A stretch of DNA of 64,000 nucleotides from Minisyncoccia bacterium (GCA_044234345.1 JBIIIW010000001.1:1766-65765), one strand, 5' to 3'; counted from the first letter of the stretch, positions 2,918-54,540 are shown. Numbers and translations: made by a program. Notes: a model not told the origin generated them from the sequence alone.

Positions 2918-3367
2918 ATGATTGAACTTACAACGGGCCTTGTGTTTCTAATGACTTCGCTATACGGAAACGCTAGTACTACCACAGACTCTGTGAATGT
3001 TCAGACATTGAGAGCTAATGTAGGGAATACAGCTTCTGTTGCAGCGAGTGATAGAGCAATCTTTGAAAAGTACGTTAGAGATCATTTTGCAGATACTCCA
3101 ATTCTAGCGGAGATTGCAAGATGTGAGTCGACATTTAGACAGTTCGACAAGAATGGAAATGTTATTAGAGGTTTAGTTGATAACGATGATATTGGTCTAA
3201 TGCAGATCAATGAAAGATATCACCTGGATACAGCTGAGAAGCTTGGTTATGATATCCATACACTAGAAGGGAACATGGCTTACGCTAAGTACCTATACGG
3301 TAAGTCTGGATCAAGACCATGGAATGCATCTAAGCCTTGTTGGGAGAAGACCCTGGCAGTGAAGTAA
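2918..3367 (+). CDS. small secreted lysozyme-like / lytic-transglycosylase-like protein (IagB/IpgF-type?)
   Basis: N-terminal signal-like hydrophobic stretch. IARCESTFRQFDKNGNVIRG...DIGLMQINERYH resembles the catalytic Glu-Ser and GLMQI motifs of goose-type/SLT-like lysozyme folds. Followed by an intrinsic terminator. Confidence 0.45.
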   Translation: MIELTTGLVFLMTSLYGNASTTTDSVNVQTLRANVGNTASVAASDRAIFEKYVRDHFADTPILAEIARCESTFRQFDKNGNVIRGLVDNDDIGLMQINERYHLDTAEKLGYDIHTLEGNMAYAKYLYGKSGSRPWNASKPCWEKTLAVK

Positions 3368-20919: not shown

Positions 20920-21933
20920 CTACATCAACAAATTTGAAACCAAAGCAACCATAAGTTCTTTGTCCCTAGGATTACTCTCAGCAATGAGTAATGCAAGAGC
21001 TACTAGAGTATTGTCATTTATCTTCTTCTCTCCGTTGTCTCTAATATCCATCCTATTTAGTCTCAGGAAGTAAATGAATACAAATGACCCTATACGCTTG
21101 TTACCATCTGAGAAAGGATGATCTTTAATGATGAAATACAATAAGTGGGAAGCTTTTTCGTTAAGACTTGAGTATAGCTCCTTACCGTCGAAGGTTTGGT
21201 ATATGGTCTTAAGAATACCTTGGAAACTTCCATCCCTTTCGGAACCGAATATATCTGTAGCTTCCTTCTTATCAACCAATACTTCTTTAAGCATATCTAT
21301 CGATCCACGAATGAATTCATAATCAAAACGTCTTTTCTCAATATCCTTACCCTTCCTTAGCTGCAGCTCACCTTCATCATATTCCTTTAGGAACTTCCAA
21401 GAATTCGCATAGTCATGGATAACGGAAAGAAGACTATTAGACTCACCCCTGTCCAATTCTCTGTTTCTAATTGTTCTTTGAATAAAGGAGATCTTTTCAT
21501 CTAAGTCACTAAGTATCTTGTCTGGTAGTTTAGATATTCTTTCGTTGTTAACTACAATACCTTTGATTAGATACTCACGGAGAGTGACGGTGGCCCAGAT
21601 ACGGAACTGAGTTGCTTTCTTGGAGTTAACTCTATATCCAACAGATAGTATTACATCTAAGCTATAGAACCTTACCTTGTAATTCTTACCATCAGCGGCA
21701 GTATGTTCCAAAATGGAACTAACTGAACTTTCGTTAAGCTCACCAGAATCGAAGATATTCTTAAGATGTTTTGTAATTGCTGGTCTTTGCGTTCCAAATA
21801 ACTCTGATATTTGTTCCTGCGTAGCCCAAATCGTCTCCTTGTCCGTATCCGCTCTTAGCTCAACTACCCCATTCTCACCTGTGTATAATACTAACTTACC
21901 GTCCTCATTTATAACGATGTTTTTGTTTACCAT
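20920..21933 (-). CDS. Fic/Doc-family protein with N-terminal RhuM-like domain
   Basis: The N-terminus (LYTGENGVVELRADTDKETIWATQEQISELFGTQRPAITKHLKNIF) resembles the RhuM virulence-protein domain. The C-terminus carries the Fic motif HPFSDGNKRIG. Confidence 0.8.
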   Translation of the reverse strand: MVNKNIVINEDGKLVLYTGENGVVELRADTDKETIWATQEQISELFGTQRPAITKHLKNIFDSGELNESSVSSILEHTAADGKNYKVRFYSLDVILSVGYRVNSKKATQFRIWATVTLREYLIKGIVVNNERISKLPDKILSDLDEKISFIQRTIRNRELDRGESNSLLSVIHDYANSWKFLKEYDEGELQLRKGKDIEKRRFDYEFIRGSIDMLKEVLVDKKEATDIFGSERDGSFQGILKTIYQTFDGKELYSSLNEKASHLLYFIIKDHPFSDGNKRIGSFVFIYFLRLNRMDIRDNGEKKINDNTLVALALLIAESNPRDKELMVALVSNLLM

Positions 21934-22105
21934 ATTTAATTTTGCTAACTATTATTAAAACTTGCAGTTAAATCCCGGGAATGATTACTGAATTGATTGA
22001 GTTAAATCTAGTACAACCTAGATTGACCTCACAATTATATCAATATTAAAAGTAAAAGACCACAATATTTGTGGTCTTTTACTAATTCTATATTCCCTAC
22101 TCTAC

Positions 22106-23989
22106 CTATTTCTTCTCCTTAAACTCCGCATCCTTCACATCCCCCTCTGGTGCCTTCTGTTCACCTGTAGGTGGAGTTTGTTCTGCCTGAGCTTTAGATA
22201 GTATCTCACCAATCTTTGATAGTTCTGCTGATAGGATATCAGTTACTTTCTTTAGATTAGCTTGATCAGTACCATCCTTAGCAGTCTTTACATCAGCAAT
22301 CTTGTCTTCGATTGACTTACGAAGATCTGCTGGAACTTTGTCTCCCGCATCCTTTAGAGATTTCTCTGAAGTATGTATTAGTTGTTCCGCCATGTTCTTC
22401 GCTTCAACCATTTCCTTCTTCTTTGCATCCTCTGCTGCATTCATCTCTGCATCCTTCTTCATCTTCTCAACCTCTTCTTTTGAAAGTCCTGAACTTGCAG
22501 TGATCTTAATACTATTAGCCTTTCCAGTAGCTTTGTCCTTAGCTGTAACTGATAGGATTCCGTTAGCATCTAGATCGAATGTAACTTCAATTTGTGGCAT
22601 ACCTCTCTGAGCTGGAGCTATACCATCTAGGATGAATCTACCCAATGACTTGTTATCACTCGCCATTGATCTCTCTCCTTGAGTAACGTGAATTTCTACA
22701 GATGTTTGGTTATCAGCTGCTGTAGAGAAGATTTGAGACTTCTGGGTAGGTATAGTGGTGTTCTTGTCGATTAATCTTGTAGCTACTCCTCCCATTGTTT
22801 CGATTGAGAGTGATAGCGGAGTAACATCTAGAAGTAGTACTCCCTTAACGTCTCCAGCAAGGATACCTCCTTGTATAGCAGCTCCTACCGCAACCACTTC
22901 GTCTGGATTTACACCAAGATGTAATTCCTTACCGAAGAAATCCTTAACAGCCTTTTGCATAGCTGGCATTCTTGTCTGACCTCCAACAAGTATTACCTCG
23001 TTGATATCGCCAACTTTGAATGGAGATGCAGCCATTGCTCTCTTTGTGATCTCCATTGCACGAGTGATGAACTCTGAAGTAAGTTCCTCAAGCTTTGCAC
23101 GAGTCATAGTTACGAGTAAGTGTTTTGGTCCATCAGCTCCTGAAGTTAGGAATGGAATATTTACTTCTGTCTGCATAGCAGTTGAAAGTTCAATCTTTGC
23201 CTTCTCTGCAGCTTCATCTAGTCTCTGTAGAGCAAGTGCATCCTTTCTAACATCAATTCCCTCTTGCTTCTTGAATTCTTCTGCAAGCCAGTTAATGATC
23301 TTTTGATCAATATCCTTACCTCCAAGATGAGCGTCTCCGTCTGTAGACTTAACTTCAACAACATCATCTCCAACTTCTAGAACTGAGATATCGAATGTAC
23401 CTCCTCCGAAGTCAAACACTACAATCTTCTCATCCTTCTTCTTGTCGAAGCCATAAGCTAGAGCTGCAGCTGTAGGTTCGTTGATAATTCTCTTAACATC
23501 AAGACCAGCAATCTTTCCAGCATCCTTTGTAGCTTGCCTTTGTGCGTCATTGAAGTATGCAGGAACTGTAATTACTGCTTCTGTAACAGGTTCTCCAAGA
23601 CGAGCTTCAGCATCAGCCTTCATCTTACCTAGTATCATTGCTGATATCTCTTCTGGTCTGTACCACTTATCACCCATCTTCACTTCAATTCCTCCAGTTG
23701 CACTCTTTTGCATTTCGAATGGAACAGATGTTCTATCTTTCTGTACTGCAGGATCATCGAAGTTATGACCGATGAATCTCTTGATTTGGTATATTGTATT
23801 CTTAGGATTTGTAACTCCCTGACGCTTAGCAAGAAGTCCCACCATACGATCGCCAGTCTTAGACATTGCGATTATAGATGGAGTTGTACGTGCTCCTTCA
23901 GCGTTCTCTAATATTTTTGGTGTACCAGCTTCCATTACTGCAACTGCAGAGTTGGTGGTACCTAGATCGATTCCGATTATTTTAGACAT
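22106..23989 (-). CDS. dnaK: molecular chaperone DnaK (Hsp70)
   Basis: [33 protein letters not shown] and more. 627 aa. Confidence 0.95.
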
Positions 23990-24016
23990 AGATTTGTTTG
24001 ATTATTATTTTATATT

Positions 24017-24244
24017 TTGATAATGTCGCCCTATATGAGTTCATCTTTTTCCAAACTTGATATTGGCAGGTCTGTCATTTTTAATTCTATACATGGAGAA
24101 TGTGGTATAAACGGTCTTAGGGCTGTGATTAAGGACGTTACGTATGGTTATGAGAACCACGTGACTTTTCCTCAAGGTATCTCGGTATGTATTGAATTTG
24201 AAGACAGACGCATTACTTGGTGTAGGGTTGATGAAATCACTTAA
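24017..24244 (+). CDS. small hypothetical protein
   Basis: 75-aa ORF followed by a clean terminator (24257..24284). Position within the dnaK upstream region makes it uncertain. Confidence 0.3.
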   Translation: MIMSPYMSSSFSKLDIGRSVIFNSIHGECGINGLRAVIKDVTYGYENHVTFPQGISVCIEFEDRRITWCRVDEIT

Positions 24245-24256
24245 ACACCACTGCAG

Positions 24257-24284
24257 ATCCGCATTAATTTGCGGATTCTTTTTA
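24257..24284 (+). terminator. intrinsic terminator
   Basis: atccgcattaatttgcggat followed by tcttttt. Confidence 0.6.
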
Positions 24285-24578
24285 TTTAGCCGGAGCCCTC
24301 GTAGGTTGACTCATAAAGAAGTCTAGAGAGATATATGGAGATATCCTAGATATATATGAAGGAGTTGTATCTAGAGCAAGATCTTCGGCATCAACTGATA
24401 TTGGTAGACATACTACATTCTCAGACTTAGTAACTATAGGTTCAGCAGACACGATCTGAGCTGTAAGCTTTCCATTAACATCAACTACAGTAAAACGAAC
24501 ACGTACAAGTACACCATTCTTGTCGTAGATGATTCTCTCAAAGATGCTATTGAGTTGTTTTGAAGCAATAGCTAACAT
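24282..24578 (-). CDS. hypothetical protein
   Basis: 98-aa ORF with no recognisable motif. Confidence 0.35.
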   Translation of the reverse strand: MLAIASKQLNSIFERIIYDKNGVLVRVRFTVVDVNGKLTAQIVSAEPIVTKSENVVCLPISVDAEDLALDTTPSYISRISPYISLDFFMSQPTRAPAK

Positions 24579-24637
24579 ACAAGTATTATATTATATTTTG
24601 CAAATTTGTCCAACCAAATCCATGCTATGATTACCTT

Positions 24638-24925
24638 ATGCAAACACTTATACACGCAGACATATTCTTCTTCGTAACAACAGTAATAGTTATAGCTTTA
24701 GGACTAATTTCAATAGTCATATTGACCTACATAGCATTCATAATTGCAGATATACGTGAGATATCACGCATAGCTCGTAGAGAGAGTGGAGAGATAGCTG
24801 AAGATATTGCAGAGATTAGAGGTGAGATAAAGAAAGAGATACGTAATAACTCATCAGTTATTACGTCTATATTTAAGGTAATCAAAAACCTATTTAATAG
24901 AAGAGGAAGAGTTAATAAAAAATAA
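24638..24925 (+). CDS. small membrane protein
   Basis: 95 aa with an N-terminal TM helix followed by a charged helical tail (EIAEDIAEIRGEIKKEIR). Confidence 0.4.
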   Translation: MQTLIHADIFFFVTTVIVIALGLISIVILTYIAFIIADIREISRIARRESGEIAEDIAEIRGEIKKEIRNNSSVITSIFKVIKNLFNRRGRVNKK

Positions 24926-25255
24926 ATGAAAAAGAAAAATAATAACAATATAGCTATAGGTATTGGATTAGCTACCCTTGCAGCAACTACAGCTGGAGCA
25001 TACTTCTTGTATGGTACTAAGAAAGGCAAGGTCCAAAGAAAAGCAATTAAGAGTTGGACCCTAAAGATGAAGGGAGACGTAATGGATGAAGTAGAGAAGC
25101 TTAAGGACGTATCTGAGGAGTCATACCATAAAGCTATTGATAAGGTATCAAAGAAGTATAACAAGATGAAGAATATGGATATGGTAGAACTTGCAGAGAC
25201 AGCAGACTCACTTAAGAGTCACTGGAAGGATATAAAGAAGGAGATTGGGATTTAG
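24926..25255 (+). CDS. small membrane protein, YtxH/DUF948-like
   Basis: 109 aa, NIAIGIGLATLAATTAGAYFLYGTKKGKVQRK... plus a long charged helix. Pattern typical of YtxH-like proteins. Confidence 0.45.
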   Translation: MKKKNNNNIAIGIGLATLAATTAGAYFLYGTKKGKVQRKAIKSWTLKMKGDVMDEVEKLKDVSEESYHKAIDKVSKKYNKMKNMDMVELAETADSLKSHWKDIKKEIGI

Positions 25256-25320
25256 ATCTGTATAAAAGTTTGTCCGAGAGATCTTGCGATCCCCCGGACG
25301 ATTTGTAATTCATTATTTGT

Positions 25321-25947
25321 TCATTTTACGATGAGAGTTTCCAGATGTTCCATTACCTTCACCAAGCTATCATTCAAGATTACTGGTGATGTTTTTACAT
25401 TGATACAATCGAGGTTCTCGATGCCGACTGGTATGTATCCTTTTCCGTGGTTACCCCAGTCATTGTGTGACATGTAATCTGCCAGATCCCACATCATGGG
25501 TTTAGTCCTTTCTGGATTATTTAGATCCATTTCATACTCAGCTCTGGCTATGCGTTCAATTTTTGCATACACGGACTCCCATGTAACTCGGATGGCTTTC
25601 ACTCTGTTCCTCTTGCGGAATCCTCCAAAGAACAACTTACCGTTGTTCGATACAAAACCTTCTTTCTGCCTTTCTCCTATCACGTATTCGAGAAAGTAGT
25701 CAGGATGGCAATTTGCTTCATAGAATATCTCAGCTGGTCGGTCAAGCGTCTCTACTGTTATGATTACTCCGTAGCTGTAGGCATCAAATACCCTAATCGC
25801 AATGTCGGTTGTTGGGTCAAATGCGCTATCAGACGGTCTATGACCTCTGGTCATGTATCCGTTAATAGGTTTTCCAACTTCCGGCTCGTATACCGGAACT
25901 ATTTCCGGCGCGTTGCCAATAGGTTTACAACTTCTAGCTCTTTTCAC
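25321..25947 (-). CDS. hypothetical protein, GC-rich ORFan (208 aa)
   Basis: Soluble ORF of higher GC with no recognisable motif. Confidence 0.5.
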   Translation of the reverse strand: MKRARSCKPIGNAPEIVPVYEPEVGKPINGYMTRGHRPSDSAFDPTTDIAIRVFDAYSYGVIITVETLDRPAEIFYEANCHPDYFLEYVIGERQKEGFVSNNGKLFFGGFRKRNRVKAIRVTWESVYAKIERIARAEYEMDLNNPERTKPMMWDLADYMSHNDWGNHGKGYIPVGIENLDCINVKTSPVILNDSLVKVMEHLETLIVK

Positions 25948-26031
25948 GTATCACCCTTGGTTGGTTATTTTTGAATAGGACAATTAAGTGTCCAAATATA
26001 AAATAACATATTTTACATGTCAAGTCAATAG

Positions 26032-26574
26032 CTATTTCCCCTCCCCAATCTTAACCTTAGGAGCCTTCAAAACCTTGCCATTAAGCTCATATCCCTTCTG
26101 TACAACTGTAGTTACTATATCACTCTGTTTACCATCCTCTATAGCTTCATCACGCATAGGGTCAAATGTCTTACCTATAGGGTCGATTTCCTTAAGACCA
26201 AAGTCTTCTAGAGTCTTCTTAAGCTGATTAGCAATATATTCAACTCCCACTCTCCAGTTCTTGTCTGCCTTCTCCCATGCTTCCTTGTTACCCATAGCCA
26301 TATTAAAACTATCTAATACAGGTATTAGTTCAGTAATTAGATTCTCGTTAGAGAAACGAGCAAAATCTTTTTGTGATTCTTGATCACGCTTACGAGCATT
26401 TATAAACTCAGCTTTGTCTTTCTGCCAACCATTTAGATACTCCTGCTTCTCTTCAATAGCTTTCTTAAGCTTCTCCTTAAGTACCTTAACAGTATCTAAA
26501 GCATTCTCTTCGATGACTACAGAGTCATCAATATTCTCATCCCTTTCAATTGTGATATCATTTTCATCTTTCAT
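26032..26574 (-). CDS. grpE: nucleotide exchange factor GrpE
   Basis: Coiled-coil N-terminus and a GrpE core (DFARFSNENLITELIPVLDSFNMA...GLKEIDPIGKTFDPMRDEAIE). Confidence 0.85.
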   Translation of the reverse strand: MKDENDITIERDENIDDSVVIEENALDTVKVLKEKLKKAIEEKQEYLNGWQKDKAEFINARKRDQESQKDFARFSNENLITELIPVLDSFNMAMGNKEAWEKADKNWRVGVEYIANQLKKTLEDFGLKEIDPIGKTFDPMRDEAIEDGKQSDIVTTVVQKGYELNGKVLKAPKVKIGEGK

Positions 26575-26616
26575 ATATTTCTAGTATATATTATAGAGTT
26601 GATTTTGCAATACAAA

Positions 26617-26634
26617 AGGGCGCAAACGCGCCCT
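26617..26634 (-). terminator. intrinsic terminator of gene 26638..27090
   Basis: agggcgcaaacgcgccct hairpin with a U-run on the minus strand (plus: caatacaaaa). Confidence 0.7.
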
Positions 26635-26637
26635 GTG

Positions 26638-27090
26638 TTAATGCTCTAGAAACTCCTCGAGTTCCTTAGACATTTGCTTGACCAAGAGTTCAAGACGAGT
26701 CTTATCTTGCTCAAGATATTGCTTGTATGCCGCACCACCATCGGTATCATCGAGTTTAGGATCAGATAGTTCTTTCTGAACTCTTTCAAGGTTAGCATTG
26801 TGGTTATCCAATACTCGCGTGAATGACTCGAAAGCACTATTCCGTGCTTCATCCAAGCTGAACCTTAAGGCTGACTTTGGTATGTCGTAGAGTCTCATTT
26901 CCTCCAATATCCATAAATACTCCTGAAGCGACTCACCCTCCTCAATTTGCCCCGCATTCATACGGACCAAAAGATCATTGATTTCCTCAATAGCGTGTTT
27001 CCTTCTAACCCACGTTAGTATCCAATACACTACAGGGACGATGATGGCAATTGCACTCAGGACAATTATGAGCGATAGGATTCTGTTCAT
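26638..27090 (-). CDS. membrane-anchored coiled-coil protein, paralog 1
   Basis: 150 aa with an N-terminal TM helix, then RKHAIEEINDLL... Homologous to 27222..27683. Confidence 0.55.
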   Translation of the reverse strand: MNRILSLIIVLSAIAIIVPVVYWILTWVRRKHAIEEINDLLVRMNAGQIEEGESLQEYLWILEEMRLYDIPKSALRFSLDEARNSAFESFTRVLDNHNANLERVQKELSDPKLDDTDGGAAYKQYLEQDKTRLELLVKQMSKELEEFLEH

Positions 27091-27200
27091 GTGTTCTATA
27101 CTCCTTCTGTTGTATTTCTACCACGTGAATGGAGCCTAGTCTAGGTACACGTATACCCACTGTTCATGCCAGCACAAAGAAATATTTTAATCAATACAAA

Positions 27201-27218
27201 AGGGTGCAAACGCACCCT
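27201..27218 (-). terminator. intrinsic terminator of gene 27222..27683
   Basis: agggtgcaaacgcaccct, the same module as 26617..26634 with a compensatory C:G to U:A change in the stem. Confidence 0.7.
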
Positions 27219-27221
27219 CGT

Positions 27222-27683
27222 TCACTCGACACTAAATTGTTGCAATTCATACTCCATTCTTTCTTGTAGTGTGTGGAGTCTCCGTAGCTCGTACCAAAGT
27301 TTTACTTTCCTAGACGATTCATTCTCTCCGTCATTTAATTCTAGACCATTCATCTCTTCTAAGAGTGTCTCTTGCTGGGCTTTGATAGCGTCTATGGCTT
27401 TTTGAAACGAGTTCTTTGCCCACATTTCCACCGTAGGAAGGTTATGCGAGATCTCGGATTGTTCGATTCCATGCAGGCTCATCAGGACAAGTATTTGAGA
27501 AAATATCCTTAGAGAATCTGGATCCCCCTTGTCACAATTCTTGTTAATTAAAGCTATCTCACGGTTGATGTGTTCAATCGCAGCCTTCTTCTCAACCATC
27601 TCCATGAATTTGTAGAACTTAAACAGGATGATGGTGAGTATTGCAATGCAAATCAGTGCGATAGTAAAGCTAACTGGATTCAT
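27222..27683 (-). CDS. membrane-anchored coiled-coil protein, paralog 2
   Basis: 153 aa with an N-terminal TM helix, then KKAAIEHINREI... Confidence 0.55.
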   Translation of the reverse strand: MNPVSFTIALICIAILTIILFKFYKFMEMVEKKAAIEHINREIALINKNCDKGDPDSLRIFSQILVLMSLHGIEQSEISHNLPTVEMWAKNSFQKAIDAIKAQQETLLEEMNGLELNDGENESSRKVKLWYELRRLHTLQERMEYELQQFSVE

Positions 27684-27804
27684 GATGTGCTCCTAAGTTC
27701 ACCGTAATTGGTGGTTCTAAACATATTTTTACCACACGACACAGACAAAGTAAAAGGGACCAAGATTCAATCTTGGCCCCTGAAAATTCACCCAGTTTCT
27801 CCTA

Positions 27805-28461
27805 TCAGAACCAGGAGAAATATACTTTGACTGGTTTGAATTGCAACCCTAACCGATCTCCGAAACACAGGATTGTAGTCAAATGCATACCCCTTGCAAT
27901 CGTGTGCTCGTGACTATCAGCACGCCCAGTATTCTCCAGTAGCTTGATCCACCGTATCAGTTTTCTTAAGGAATCATACTCAAAATGTTCCAATAGTTTG
28001 TTTTCATTTAAGCTACTGTGGTATCCCATTATTACCCCAGCATGACCTTCTGGTTCCATTCTCATTACGGATATCGAGGAGTCATGCCTCGTATTCACCA
28101 CCTCACAGTATTCACGAAAGTGGCGACAGAAATAATTCCAGTAATACGCATCCTGACTCACAGGTCTATTGAAAGCCAGTAGAAGTGATGTGATGATGGT
28201 CAATGCCCCTGTTCCGAGGTAAGGCCACCTTAACACATCTTCATTGTCCCTGAAAACTACCAACACGCTGAGTGCACCAATAAAGGTGATCAATGATAAA
28301 ACGAAACATGCGAATAGCATTTTGTAATGCTCCTTCCTGGTCAGGAATTCATCAGTCTTCCTAAGGATTGACTCAATGTCCTTACCCTCCTTGCCTTCGA
28401 TTTCTAACGTTCGCTTCAGCCACAACGCGAACAGGTCGCGCACCGCTTTGTTGTTCTTCAT
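27805..28461 (-). CDS. hypothetical membrane protein (2 TM), GC-rich
   Basis: 218 aa. Two TM helices (MLFACFVLSLITFIGALSVLVVF, GTGALTIITSLLLAF) and a C-terminal His-rich soluble domain. Confidence 0.5.
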   Translation of the reverse strand: MKNNKAVRDLFALWLKRTLEIEGKEGKDIESILRKTDEFLTRKEHYKMLFACFVLSLITFIGALSVLVVFRDNEDVLRWPYLGTGALTIITSLLLAFNRPVSQDAYYWNYFCRHFREYCEVVNTRHDSSISVMRMEPEGHAGVIMGYHSSLNENKLLEHFEYDSLRKLIRWIKLLENTGRADSHEHTIARGMHLTTILCFGDRLGLQFKPVKVYFSWF

Positions 28462-28653
28462 ATGTCAACGAACCAACTTAGTCAAAATCAGAGGATGGGG
28501 TTTCATACCCACTTTCTAGAACTTTCGATCCTAGAGAGTACTTCATTTACTCCGTGAATAGCTGACTAATCTATCCTACATAACTATATACCATATTTAT
28601 TGATTTGTCAATACTAATAAACATAGCTTATGTTGGGTGTTTTAGTTACAAAA

Positions 28654-28675
28654 AAGACCGATCGGTATCGGTCTT
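28654..28675 (-). terminator. intrinsic terminator after rpsI
   Basis: aagaccgatcggtatcggtctt with a U-run on the minus strand. Confidence 0.7.
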
Positions 28676-28683
28676 TTTTGCTG

Positions 28684-29097
28684 CTATCTCTTACTCCACT
28701 GTGGACTCTTTCTCGCTTTCTTGAATCCGAACTTACGTCTTTCCTTTGCTCTAGGATCACGCTTAAGCATTCCTGCCTTCTTCAATCCTGTTCTTAGTTC
28801 CTTGTCATATTCGATAAGGGCACGAGCGATACCATGTCTTACAGCATCAGCTTGTCCCGCAATACCTCCTCCCTTTGCAACTACAGTGATCTTAAACTTA
28901 GTTTCTGTAAGTTTAGACTCCTTTAGAGACTCCTGAGCCATAAGTTGAAGTTCCTTTGTTGGGAAGTACTCTTCTACTGTCTTACCATTAATATCATATG
29001 AAGTCTTTGAACTTGGAGTAATTCTTACACGAGCAGAAGCAGTCTTTCTACGACCGATAGCTTCAATGTATTTATCTGTTGTTTTAATTGCTGTCAT
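28684..29097 (-). CDS. rpsI: 30S ribosomal protein S9
   Basis: GRRKTASARVRI...GGGIAGQADAVRHGIARAL...KARKSPQWSKR. Confidence 0.9.
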   Translation of the reverse strand: MTAIKTTDKYIEAIGRRKTASARVRITPSSKTSYDINGKTVEEYFPTKELQLMAQESLKESKLTETKFKITVVAKGGGIAGQADAVRHGIARALIEYDKELRTGLKKAGMLKRDPRAKERRKFGFKKARKSPQWSKR

Positions 29098-53643: not shown

Positions 53644-54540
53644 CTAACCTGCTGCCTCACATACCTTTCTTGCTATAAACGACTCTAGATCTGGGTCTTG
53701 CTCGGCGCTGTCAACATCAATTGCAACTCTGAGCTTCTTGAATGCTGCTGCCTGGATCTGACGAATCCGTTCCCTGGTGACTCCATAGAACTTACCAACC
53801 TCATCCAAGGTCATAGGATCAGAGTCGTCCAGACCGAACCTCAGCGTAAGTATTCTCTGTTCTCTTTTATCGAGTCTGCTTAAATGCTTCCGAAGTAGAC
53901 CAAGAAGATCTGACGATTCAATATCGTCAAATGGCATTTTTGCTGAGTGGTCAGCGAGAATGTCTGCAAGGGAGGTGTTATCGAAATCCCGAACCTGAGC
54001 CTCGAGATGTAAGTTTGGCTGCGCCCACTCAAAAACCATTCTTACATTATCCTCAGTTAGATGCGTTGCCTTTGCAATTTCTGCATGACTTGGTTCATAC
54101 CCGAGTTGCATTTGAAGTTTCTTCTCAGCTTTTCTTATCTTACCGAGACGAATCACCTGGTGAACCGGCATTCTCACATTCCTGACTTGGTTGGCGAGTC
54201 CGCGCTTAATTGATTGTTTGATCCACCACGCAGCATATGTCGATAGTTTCGCACCCTTAGCTGGGTTGAATTTATCAACTGCTCTCATTAGGCCAATATT
54301 GCCTTCGTTGATAAGGTCAACGAGTGGCAAACCGTAGTCGAGGTATTCTCGTGCGATTTTCACCACCAATTTGAGATTGCTTCGAATCATTGTTTCTCTG
54401 GCCTCTTTGTCGCCCATAGCAATTCTTCCTGCCAATGCAGTTTCCTGCTCTGGGGTCAGCAAATCGTGTTGGAGAGCGTCATTGGCATATAGCCTCATGA
54501 GAAAATCGTCGCCATCATCATATGTGCCTTCTTTTGCCAT
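53644..54540 (-). CDS. RNA polymerase sigma factor, RpoD-like (compact, regions 2-4)
   Basis: DLINEGNIGLMRAVDKFNPAKGAKLSTYAAWWIKQSI (r2), PVHQVIRLGKIRKAEKKL (r3.0), LTLRFGLDDSDPMTLDEVGKFYGVTRERIRQIQAAAFKKLR (r4.2). About 44% GC. Confidence 0.85.
   Translation of the reverse strand: MAKEGTYDDGDDFLMRLYANDALQHDLLTPEQETALAGRIAMGDKEARETMIRSNLKLVVKIAREYLDYGLPLVDLINEGNIGLMRAVDKFNPAKGAKLSTYAAWWIKQSIKRGLANQVRNVRMPVHQVIRLGKIRKAEKKLQMQLGYEPSHAEIAKATHLTEDNVRMVFEWAQPNLHLEAQVRDFDNTSLADILADHSAKMPFDDIESSDLLGLLRKHLSRLDKREQRILTLRFGLDDSDPMTLDEVGKFYGVTRERIRQIQAAAFKKLRVAIDVDSAEQDPDLESFIARKVCEAAG

Follow-up and report, generated by a model that had tools for sequence, protein, structure and literature searches.

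What occupies the interval between dnaK and the ribosomal protein gene rpsI in a 64,000-nucleotide (nt) stretch of DNA from a Minisyncoccia bacterium (GCA_044234345.1), and how did it come to be arranged as it is? The stretch, here called the window, is approximately 37% GC, and all coordinates count from its first letter. At 24017-28461 a sequence-only reading had described a single accessory block of small, partly GC-rich genes around grpE, including two paralogs (A and B below) with near-identical terminators, and had suggested that the GC-rich genes share an origin or a terminator-associated mechanism. The open reading frames (ORFs) and coordinates given there are accurate. However, we put at approximately 75% the probability that the locus is a clade-typical rpsI-grpE-p98-dnaK backbone with variable junctions (p98 being a small gene between grpE and dnaK), in which A and B are tandem copies of a complete transcription unit.

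A GrpE-anchored scan of species-representative genomes yielded 80 related loci (designated by L numbers), all from Patescibacteria metagenome-assembled genomes with labels such as Taylorbacteria, Paceibacteria, Parcubacteria and similar. The host of the window is itself, judging from sequence, a member of the Patescibacteria that resembles Paceibacteria/"Taylorbacteria". The contig carrying the window is also present in Logan run SRR27335595 and in JGI sample 3300042861.

The A and B units upstream of grpE

The elements that make up the two units and the adjoining start of grpE are:

27724-27735, minus strand: B promoter core GTGGTAAAAATA, extended -10-like; block conserved in 5/5 aligned upstream regions
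27222-27683, minus strand: paralog B, 153 amino acids (aa); N-terminal membrane helix and helical domain
27192-27218, minus strand: predicted B terminator and tail, AGGGTGC-GTTT-GCACCCT-TTTGTATTG, with the compensatory U:A pair (motif match, folding, pairing)
27113-27124, minus strand: A promoter core GTGGTAGAAATA; same conserved upstream block
26638-27090, minus strand: paralog A, 150 aa; the copy adjoining grpE, kept in all close relatives
26608-26634, minus strand: predicted A terminator and tail, AGGGCGC-GTTT-GCGCCCT-TTTGTATTG (motif match, folding, pairing)
26583-26610, minus strand: grpE promoter TTGCAA-16-TATACT; the last bases of the terminator tail lie within it (promoter scan)
26032-26574, minus strand: grpE (Pfam GrpE, 7.9e-33)

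A and B are clear paralogs, as had been proposed. They align end to end with 29% identity (BLASTP, E=1e-11 over 148 aa), and both match at approximately 1e-24 a family hidden Markov model (HMM) built independently from database proteins only. When this HMM was searched against all 6480 ORFs of the window and the 80 related loci, it matched 25 ORFs in 22 loci, every one of them between rpsI and grpE and on the grpE strand; the window matches are A and B only. The GrpE proteins of the 22 family-bearing genomes are 55-97% identical to that of the window, and the family is therefore old in the clade and positionally fixed.

A full HMM search of 1.84 billion representative sequences brought the family to 67 proteins (E up to 1e-3), none annotated in the library; their lengths are 78-238 aa with two exceptions. 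Word-indexed searches found only a handful of relatives. The usual members carry a membrane helix, the motif KRxxRRxELRHHIxMIxDPxGCxxAxxHYxxCxHIxEHYGIxLxEVGF and a later EAxxSxxRA; A and B, which lack the cysteines, branch off as divergent members. In both, further helices come after a hydrophobic helix at the N-terminus, and the AlphaFold2 (AF2) model of A (mean predicted local distance difference test score, pLDDT, 89) consists of a long N-terminal helix (residues 3-45) and three helices. Neither protein has a significant match in Pfam, PHROGs, PADLOC, PDB sequences or PDB folds (the best Foldseek match of the A model, to generic helical bundles, has E=0.38). The sole PDB sequence match, to the membrane helix of Vpu, was rejected as an effect of composition. 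A and B combine an N-terminal membrane helix with a helical domain of approximately 100 aa, which is probably cytoplasmic, judging from the basic residues that follow the membrane helix.

The full terminator sequences, AGGGCGCGTTTGCGCCCTTTTGTATTG for A and AGGGTGCGTTTGCACCCTTTTGTATTG for B, are identical at 25/27 positions, and both differences belong to one compensatory change of a C:G to a U:A pair, which confirms the earlier description. The module has only these two matches in 64 kb even at 3 mismatches (0 expected by chance), and A/B is the best non-trivial pair (score 22; median 6, 95th percentile 10) of the 378 possible among 28 window terminators. As in known intrinsic terminators, a GC-rich stem (7 bp, or 7-8 bp by the wider count) that starts 3-4 nt 3' of the stop codon carries a 4-nt loop and is followed by a U-tract. 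This tract, CCCUUUUGUAUUG, has four U and then a U-rich stretch, and the scan, which asked for at least 5 T in 8, accepts it. The A and B hairpins fold at -14.9 and -13.7 kcal/mol, respectively (z -3.0 and -3.9). In an alignment of five related terminators the stem stays paired in 35/35 cells; it has undergone one change on both sides of a pair and one between G:U and A:U. By our own arithmetic the chance that two random substitutions in 27 nt hit one stem pair complementarily is approximately 0.007, and the double change looks like the expected signature of selection for pairing. The idea that the hairpins are functional thereby gains support: they are predicted intrinsic terminators, which may shield each unit, and with it the grpE promoter, against read-through.

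Homology extends to the regions upstream of A and B, which share GTGGTA[A/G]AAATA...CAGAA with the look of an extended -10 promoter and have, further downstream in each, a Shine-Dalgarno sequence. Since both promoters and terminators are homologous, the duplicated unit consists of promoter, ORF and terminator, in agreement with the earlier proposal that a whole unit was duplicated. One close strain, L006 (approximately 97% nt identity in the flanking genes), has rpsI, A and grpE without B or p218, the gene that precedes B in the window. Its sequence is of B type up to the promoter repeat and of A type after it, with the join exactly at the repeat corresponding to 27113-27124, as expected of the product of a deletion of B by recombination between the two promoter copies. 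The comparison shows that the duplication took in promoter, ORF and terminator together with the opening bases of the grpE -35 box, and that L006 later lost B through this recombination. The arrangement thus resembles tandem duplication by unequal recombination, with head-to-tail copies and a deletion product whose junction lies in a repeated element.

The tail of the module is accounted for by the promoter of grpE. In many genomes the family genes are followed by a hairpin, a T-run, TTGCAA or TTGCCA, approximately 17 nt, (C)GTATACT, and then after approximately 10 nt the grpE ATG; the pattern TTGC(A/C)nn-N~17-(C)GTATACT was found by regular expression upstream of grpE in 35/79 related loci. 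The "UACAAAA" that the sequence-only reading had counted as part of a recurrent design is therefore the reverse complement of the U-tract and the start of the grpE -35 box. The tail of the B copy retains only the TTG of that box and then diverges. The grpE leader is only approximately 8-10 nt. In L020, L023, L024, L025, L030, L035, L037 and L042, approximately 60 nt before grpE (at position 10001 or its equivalent), the rpsI terminator hairpin holds the grpE -35 box (CTTGCC) in its loop and 3' arm (for example CCGGCACTTGCCGGATTTTT), and GTATACT follows these hairpins in a very compact overlap of terminator and promoter.

The coding sequences have changed much faster than those of their neighbors. 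Orthologs of A are 84% identical in L006 and 62% identical in L004 (GCA_964492835.1, approximately 87% identical), with ratios of nonsynonymous to synonymous substitution (dN/dS) of 0.33-0.36. For A and its L004 ortholog dN is 0.22 and dS 0.67 (ratio 0.33), compared with ratios of 0.01-0.05 at similar dS in the core neighbors, and overall dN in the coding parts of A and B is 10-20 times that of neighboring core genes. A therefore appears to descend vertically with fast protein change. B has a relative, P0004, that is 86% identical.

In the history that we favor, each unit would consist of the extended -10 promoter GTGGTA[A/G]AAATA, a Shine-Dalgarno sequence, an ORF of approximately 150 aa, a 7-bp GC hairpin and a U-tract. 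The unit would have been tandemly duplicated upstream of grpE, after which the ORFs diverged fast. The short flanks would have stayed alike because most of their positions are probably under functional constraint (the -10 box, the stem pairs, the U-tract and the next -35 box). We thus regard A and B as a real and largely ordinary case of genome evolution, a tandem duplication ended by intrinsic terminators.

The rpsI-grpE-p98-dnaK backbone and its junctions

The remaining features of the locus, from rpsI to dnaK, are:

28684-29097, minus strand: rpsI (ORF call)
28650-28679, minus strand: predicted rpsI intrinsic terminator AAAAAAGACCGATACCGATCGGTCTTTTTT, first element of the p218 cassette (-22.1 kcal/mol, z -9.4)
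28583-28611, minus strand: p218 promoter-like site TTGACA-17-TATAGT (11/12 consensus match)
27805-28461, minus strand: p218, an ORFan specific to this strain, with two hydrophobic helices in the middle of the protein; GC content at third codon positions (GC3) 0.52
27755-27781, minus strand: predicted p218 terminator, whose U-tract runs on into the relative-shared sequence TTTTACTTTGTCTGT; homology to L006 and L004 resumes at 27755
25995-26023, minus strand: p208 promoter-like site
25321-25947, minus strand: p208, a near-ORFan with its own promoter-like site and terminator
25272-25299, minus strand: predicted p208 terminator
24926-25255, plus strand: p109, weakly YtxH-like; convergent pair with p95
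24638-24925, plus strand: p95; convergent pair with p109
24282-24578, minus strand: p98, a small clade-conserved protein in the grpE-dnaK interval
24017-24244, plus strand: p75, a small ORF restricted to the lineage and running against the operon
22106-23989, minus strand: dnaK (ORF call)

The backbone genes of the 80 loci run in the order rplQ-rplM-rpsI-[gap]-grpE-[gap]-p98-[gap]-dnaK-[gap]-dnaJ. The rpsI gene lies upstream of grpE in 70/80, and p98 homologs are found between grpE and dnaK in 66/80 (for example L008:10571-10867). The gaps vary widely: -7 to 6372 nt between rpsI and grpE (median 538) and 22 to 8422 nt between grpE and p98 in the 80 species, and 44 to 1734 nt between p98 and dnaK. 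At 2.1 kb, the rpsI-grpE gap of the window is toward the large end of its range. A compact ancestral arrangement exists, grpE directly following rpsI in about ten species. Relatives carry varied cargo between rpsI and grpE: judged by eye, there are ORFs resembling pilins and NUDIX, ArsR and LysE proteins, tiny membrane peptides and a single ORF of 1568 aa. Another tiny family in this gap has a membrane helix followed by APxGYEDxTGxHxG (L052:9597-9815, L057:9751-9909, L058:9630-9776, L063:9631-9780).

These comparisons suggest that the intergenic junctions of the backbone are hot spots for the gain and loss of small genes. L004 has rpsI, an upstream family copy, its A ortholog and grpE, and is without p218 and p208. 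It also carries a PemK-family toxin gene (9963-10448, minus strand) between the p95/p109 pair and p98, a position that is empty in the window. The single accessory block described earlier is not borne out, with p98 present in most species and the A/B family a clade-wide neighbor of grpE; only p218, p208 and p75 are strain- or lineage-specific. The synteny comparison thus upholds variable junctions and not a single accessory insertion.

The strain-specific genes have few relatives of any kind. The clusters of p218 and p208 contain one or two sequences among 15 billion proteins, p218 being a singleton. No Pfam, PHROG, PADLOC, phage, viral or PDB match was found for p218, nor any family, phage, viral or PDB match for p208, whose one relative (34% identical) lies in L059, also directly after grpE. 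L020 and L021 have matches of 37-44% to p75, which are placed and oriented as in the window. The p95/p109 pair occupies the same position in 10/80 loci and is 95% and 98% identical in L004; p109 matches YtxH (Pfam PF12732) with E=9.1e-5 and 23.3 bits, the gathering cutoff being 37.5. We interpret p218, p208 and p75 as apparently independent strain- or lineage-specific additions, and p98 and p95/p109 as conserved neighbors. The p218 leader (approximately 120 nt) was considered as a riboswitch or attenuator and rejected, as it shows no significant structure (z -0.5).

Searches of all block ORFs against Pfam, PHROGs and PADLOC gave only GrpE and the weak YtxH match. Outside the block, a RhuM/Fic-Doc gene (20920-21933, minus strand; PADLOC PDC-S23, E=1e-117) lies between dnaK and dnaJ, and its relatives, 71-78% identical, are found downstream of dnaK in four other species (L009, L018, L030, L042). 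The window also encodes a sigma-70 family protein of 298 aa with regions 1.2, 2, 3 and 4 (53644-54540, minus strand; GC3 0.445) and its own terminator.

Alternative origins of the paired units

Several observations weigh against duplication followed by simple constraint on the flanks. The U-tract has only four uninterrupted U, which is short for an intrinsic terminator, and it runs into the -35 box of the next promoter. The support from conserved pairing is weak because it comes from a single covariation event, a level that 109/500 shuffles reach with five sequences, and termination and promoter activity are sequence predictions. Tandem family pairs occur in the window, L004/L008, L012, L038 and L022, with proteins 20-30% identical and best local coding nt matches of only 11-20 nt. 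The terminators are alike within a genome (25/27 in the window, 30/31 in L012, 38/40 in L038, and 16/16 with an identical stem in L004/L008) and different between genomes, which purifying selection alone may not explain. Such near-identity in primary sequence beside saturated ORFs is a departure from ordinary intrinsic terminators, and flanks of 16-40 nt that stay near-identical in four genomes and in a second window pair depart likewise from ordinary tandem duplication. Finally, B is only 22% identical to the upstream family copy of L004 despite conserved flanks, which replacement or very strong diversifying selection would explain better than simple descent does.

It is possible, though in our judgment somewhat unlikely, that the flanks take an active part, either through concerted evolution by gene conversion or template switching or as homology arms for the replacement of cassettes with divergent alleles from relatives. 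This would refine the history of tandem duplication rather than oppose it; under this view the flanks look young and the ORFs old. In addition to the genome-specific terminators and the divergence of B from its L004 counterpart, the L038 copies, whose terminators agree at 38/40 positions, are not each other's best match. However, the pairs of the window and L012 are mutual best protein hits, as fits lineage-specific duplication and fast divergence, and the L022 pair is without common terminators. The closing pair of the window A terminator is A:U, as in B-type terminators, while the A terminators of L006 and L004 have G:U; conversion in the window lineage rests on this one shared derived site. 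The normal dS of the A orthologs gives no sign of import, and the repeats, at 16-40 nt, are near or below the usual minimum for RecA-mediated recombination.

Replacement would also agree with the segment that carries p218. This segment (28680-27756, 925 bp) stands between conserved flanks in place of the 26-nt rpsI hairpin of the relatives, L006 and L004 having a different hairpin at the position of the rpsI terminator, and no target-site duplication was found there. The GC3 of the A/B family points the same way, as it stays near 0.5 (approximately 0.43-0.58) whatever the core GC3 of the host (0.17-0.71; 26 family ORFs in 22 loci), above the core in AT-rich hosts and below it in GC-rich hosts. 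A second, unrelated window pair (10073-10339 and 10864-11127, plus strand) shows the same pattern: the proteins are 26% identical (E=6e-8), the promoter-leader regions 77% identical over 56 nt and the terminators 83% identical over 30 nt. This second module (10001-11200, plus strand) has a middle gene, 10479-10760, whose terminator is similar to the 11171-11195 hairpin.

The locus shares with hypervariable loci such as capsule, O-antigen and integron cassette arrays the bracketing of divergent or strain-specific genes by conserved flanks at a fixed position. It differs in that the flanks are only tens of nt of promoter and terminator, that there is no integrase or attC-type site, and that exchange is inferred. 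Purifying selection on densely functional flanks with fast ORF evolution, short-tract gene conversion and ORF replacement via the flanks are the three candidate explanations of the alike flanks around saturated ORFs.

The proposal that p218, B, A, p208 and the ORFs near 10-11 kb, all of them GC-rich, have in common a foreign origin or a terminator-associated mobile mechanism now seems very improbable and is largely refuted. It drew on elevated GC3 (0.43-0.52 in p208, A, B and p218 vs 0.25-0.34 in ribosomal and chaperone genes) and on T-run/GTAT(AC) tails at several terminators. However, GC3 in the A/B family is independent of the host; GC-richness is therefore a family trait and no evidence of a common origin with p218 and p208, whose terminators differ and which have no relatives in common. 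The tails are not specific either, as by our reading of the window terminator survey they follow approximately 4/12 low-GC3 terminators, including those of rpsI, 2918-3367 and 11218-11724, and 7/12 higher-GC3 terminators. We therefore rejected them as a mark of GC-rich ORFans, and the tail beside A belongs to the grpE promoter. Of the two places where a similar design had been seen, the hairpin at 11171-11195 is a bidirectional terminator that also serves the low-GC3 gene 11218-11724 (DUF7282), and 10374-10390 is a T/A-rich tail only. Nor is the exact module dispersed: beyond its two copies in the window, a scan of metagenome contigs for the terminator pattern gave two chance matches only, in unrelated high-GC organisms. 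No transposase, integrase, recombinase or phage signal was found in the block (Pfam, PHROGs and PADLOC, and phage and viral searches with p218 and p208), and A descends vertically, with dS like that of its neighbors, in a family old in the clade. A mobile repeat of the repetitive extragenic palindrome or miniature inverted-repeat transposable element type, or an integron attC cassette, was likewise rejected given two copies in 64 kb and no recombinase domain in the block.

Equally hard to credit is a sequence-specific site (protein operator, recombination site, or signal for processing an RNA derived from the 3' untranslated region): although A- and B-type copies in two species agree in the primary sequence of stem and 10-nt tail more closely than pairing alone requires, the position 3-10 nt after the stop codon, GC stem, 4-nt loop and U-tract are those of a textbook terminator, the loop is the most variable part (GTTT, GATT, AGGG), the adjacent promoter accounts for the tail, family members elsewhere carry unrelated hairpins at the same place, and there is no Rfam match.

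p98 and the control of grpE and dnaK

The most constant small gene of the locus is p98. The extreme C-terminus of its product is invariant (...SPYxSLxFFxSQPTRAPS; C-terminal peptide SLDFFMSQPTRAPS), and neither Pfam nor a profile search of the PDB gave a match. A single-sequence AF2 model is poor (pLDDT 51), with a three-stranded sheet (residues 8-47, pLDDT approximately 70) and a disordered tail. In relatives the p98-dnaK gap is often only approximately 50 nt, and p98 and dnaK are therefore probably co-transcribed in those genomes. The putative promoter of p98, TGGACA-16-TATAAT (24585-24612), ends 6 nt before the ATG, with the same spacing in many relatives, which suggests that the p98 mRNA is leaderless. 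We regard p98 as a candidate chaperone partner or regulator. In related loci such as L022, L030, L052, L076 and L084 a 7-bp palindrome-like sequence, TTGTCAA(T), occurs at variable distance upstream of p98 and dnaK, sometimes directly before the dnaK ATG, and may represent an operator or a variant of the -35 box. The window is without a clean copy.

The order and orientation of grpE, dnaK and dnaJ in the window are those of the Firmicutes-type hrcA-grpE-dnaK-dnaJ operon, which is under the control of HrcA and the controlling inverted repeat of chaperone expression (CIRCE). However, the locus differs from that operon in several respects. As had been noted earlier, CIRCE was not seen: the inverted repeat TTAGCACTC-N9-GAGTGCTAA has no match in the 64 kb at up to 3 mismatches. 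The accompanying statement on HrcA holds for the block ORFs, among which Pfam finds no HrcA domain; the search was not exhaustive, and hrcA elsewhere in the genome was not searched for. The gene that precedes grpE is rpsI or an A/B family member, not hrcA. Here grpE follows the rpsI operon with its own promoter (TTGCAA-N16/17-TATACT), p98 lies between grpE and dnaK, and the junctions are broken by variable genes. A search of Rfam, with the whole window at the gathering threshold and 21900-28750 at E up to 1, gave one tRNA and two chance-level matches, and no thermosensor or leader at the locus. We found nothing specific in the literature on heat-shock regulation in Patescibacteria or on gene conversion of terminators.

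To our knowledge, neither the A/B family nor p98 has been annotated or studied so far. As a low-confidence guess, which we think unlikely to be right, the A/B proteins might be membrane-tethered adaptors or sensors linked to the GrpE/DnaK system. More speculative still, and less probable, is a picture in which the flanks act as fixed "sockets" for duplicating, homogenizing and swapping small membrane-protein genes in episymbiont-type bacteria, with the A/B proteins and p98 as unrecognized clade-specific partners or regulators of GrpE and DnaK where the locus shows no control by CIRCE and HrcA.

The chief value of these results is corrective, in that the paired genes represent normal tandem duplication of a self-contained unit and not a terminator-borne mobile system. 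In addition, they bring to light two unannotated families tied to grpE and dnaK, whose proteins, at a locus that lacks CIRCE, may act as clade-specific partners of the chaperones or as regulators of stress responses. The near-identical flanks around saturated ORFs could, with population data, show how small genomes diversify small membrane proteins.

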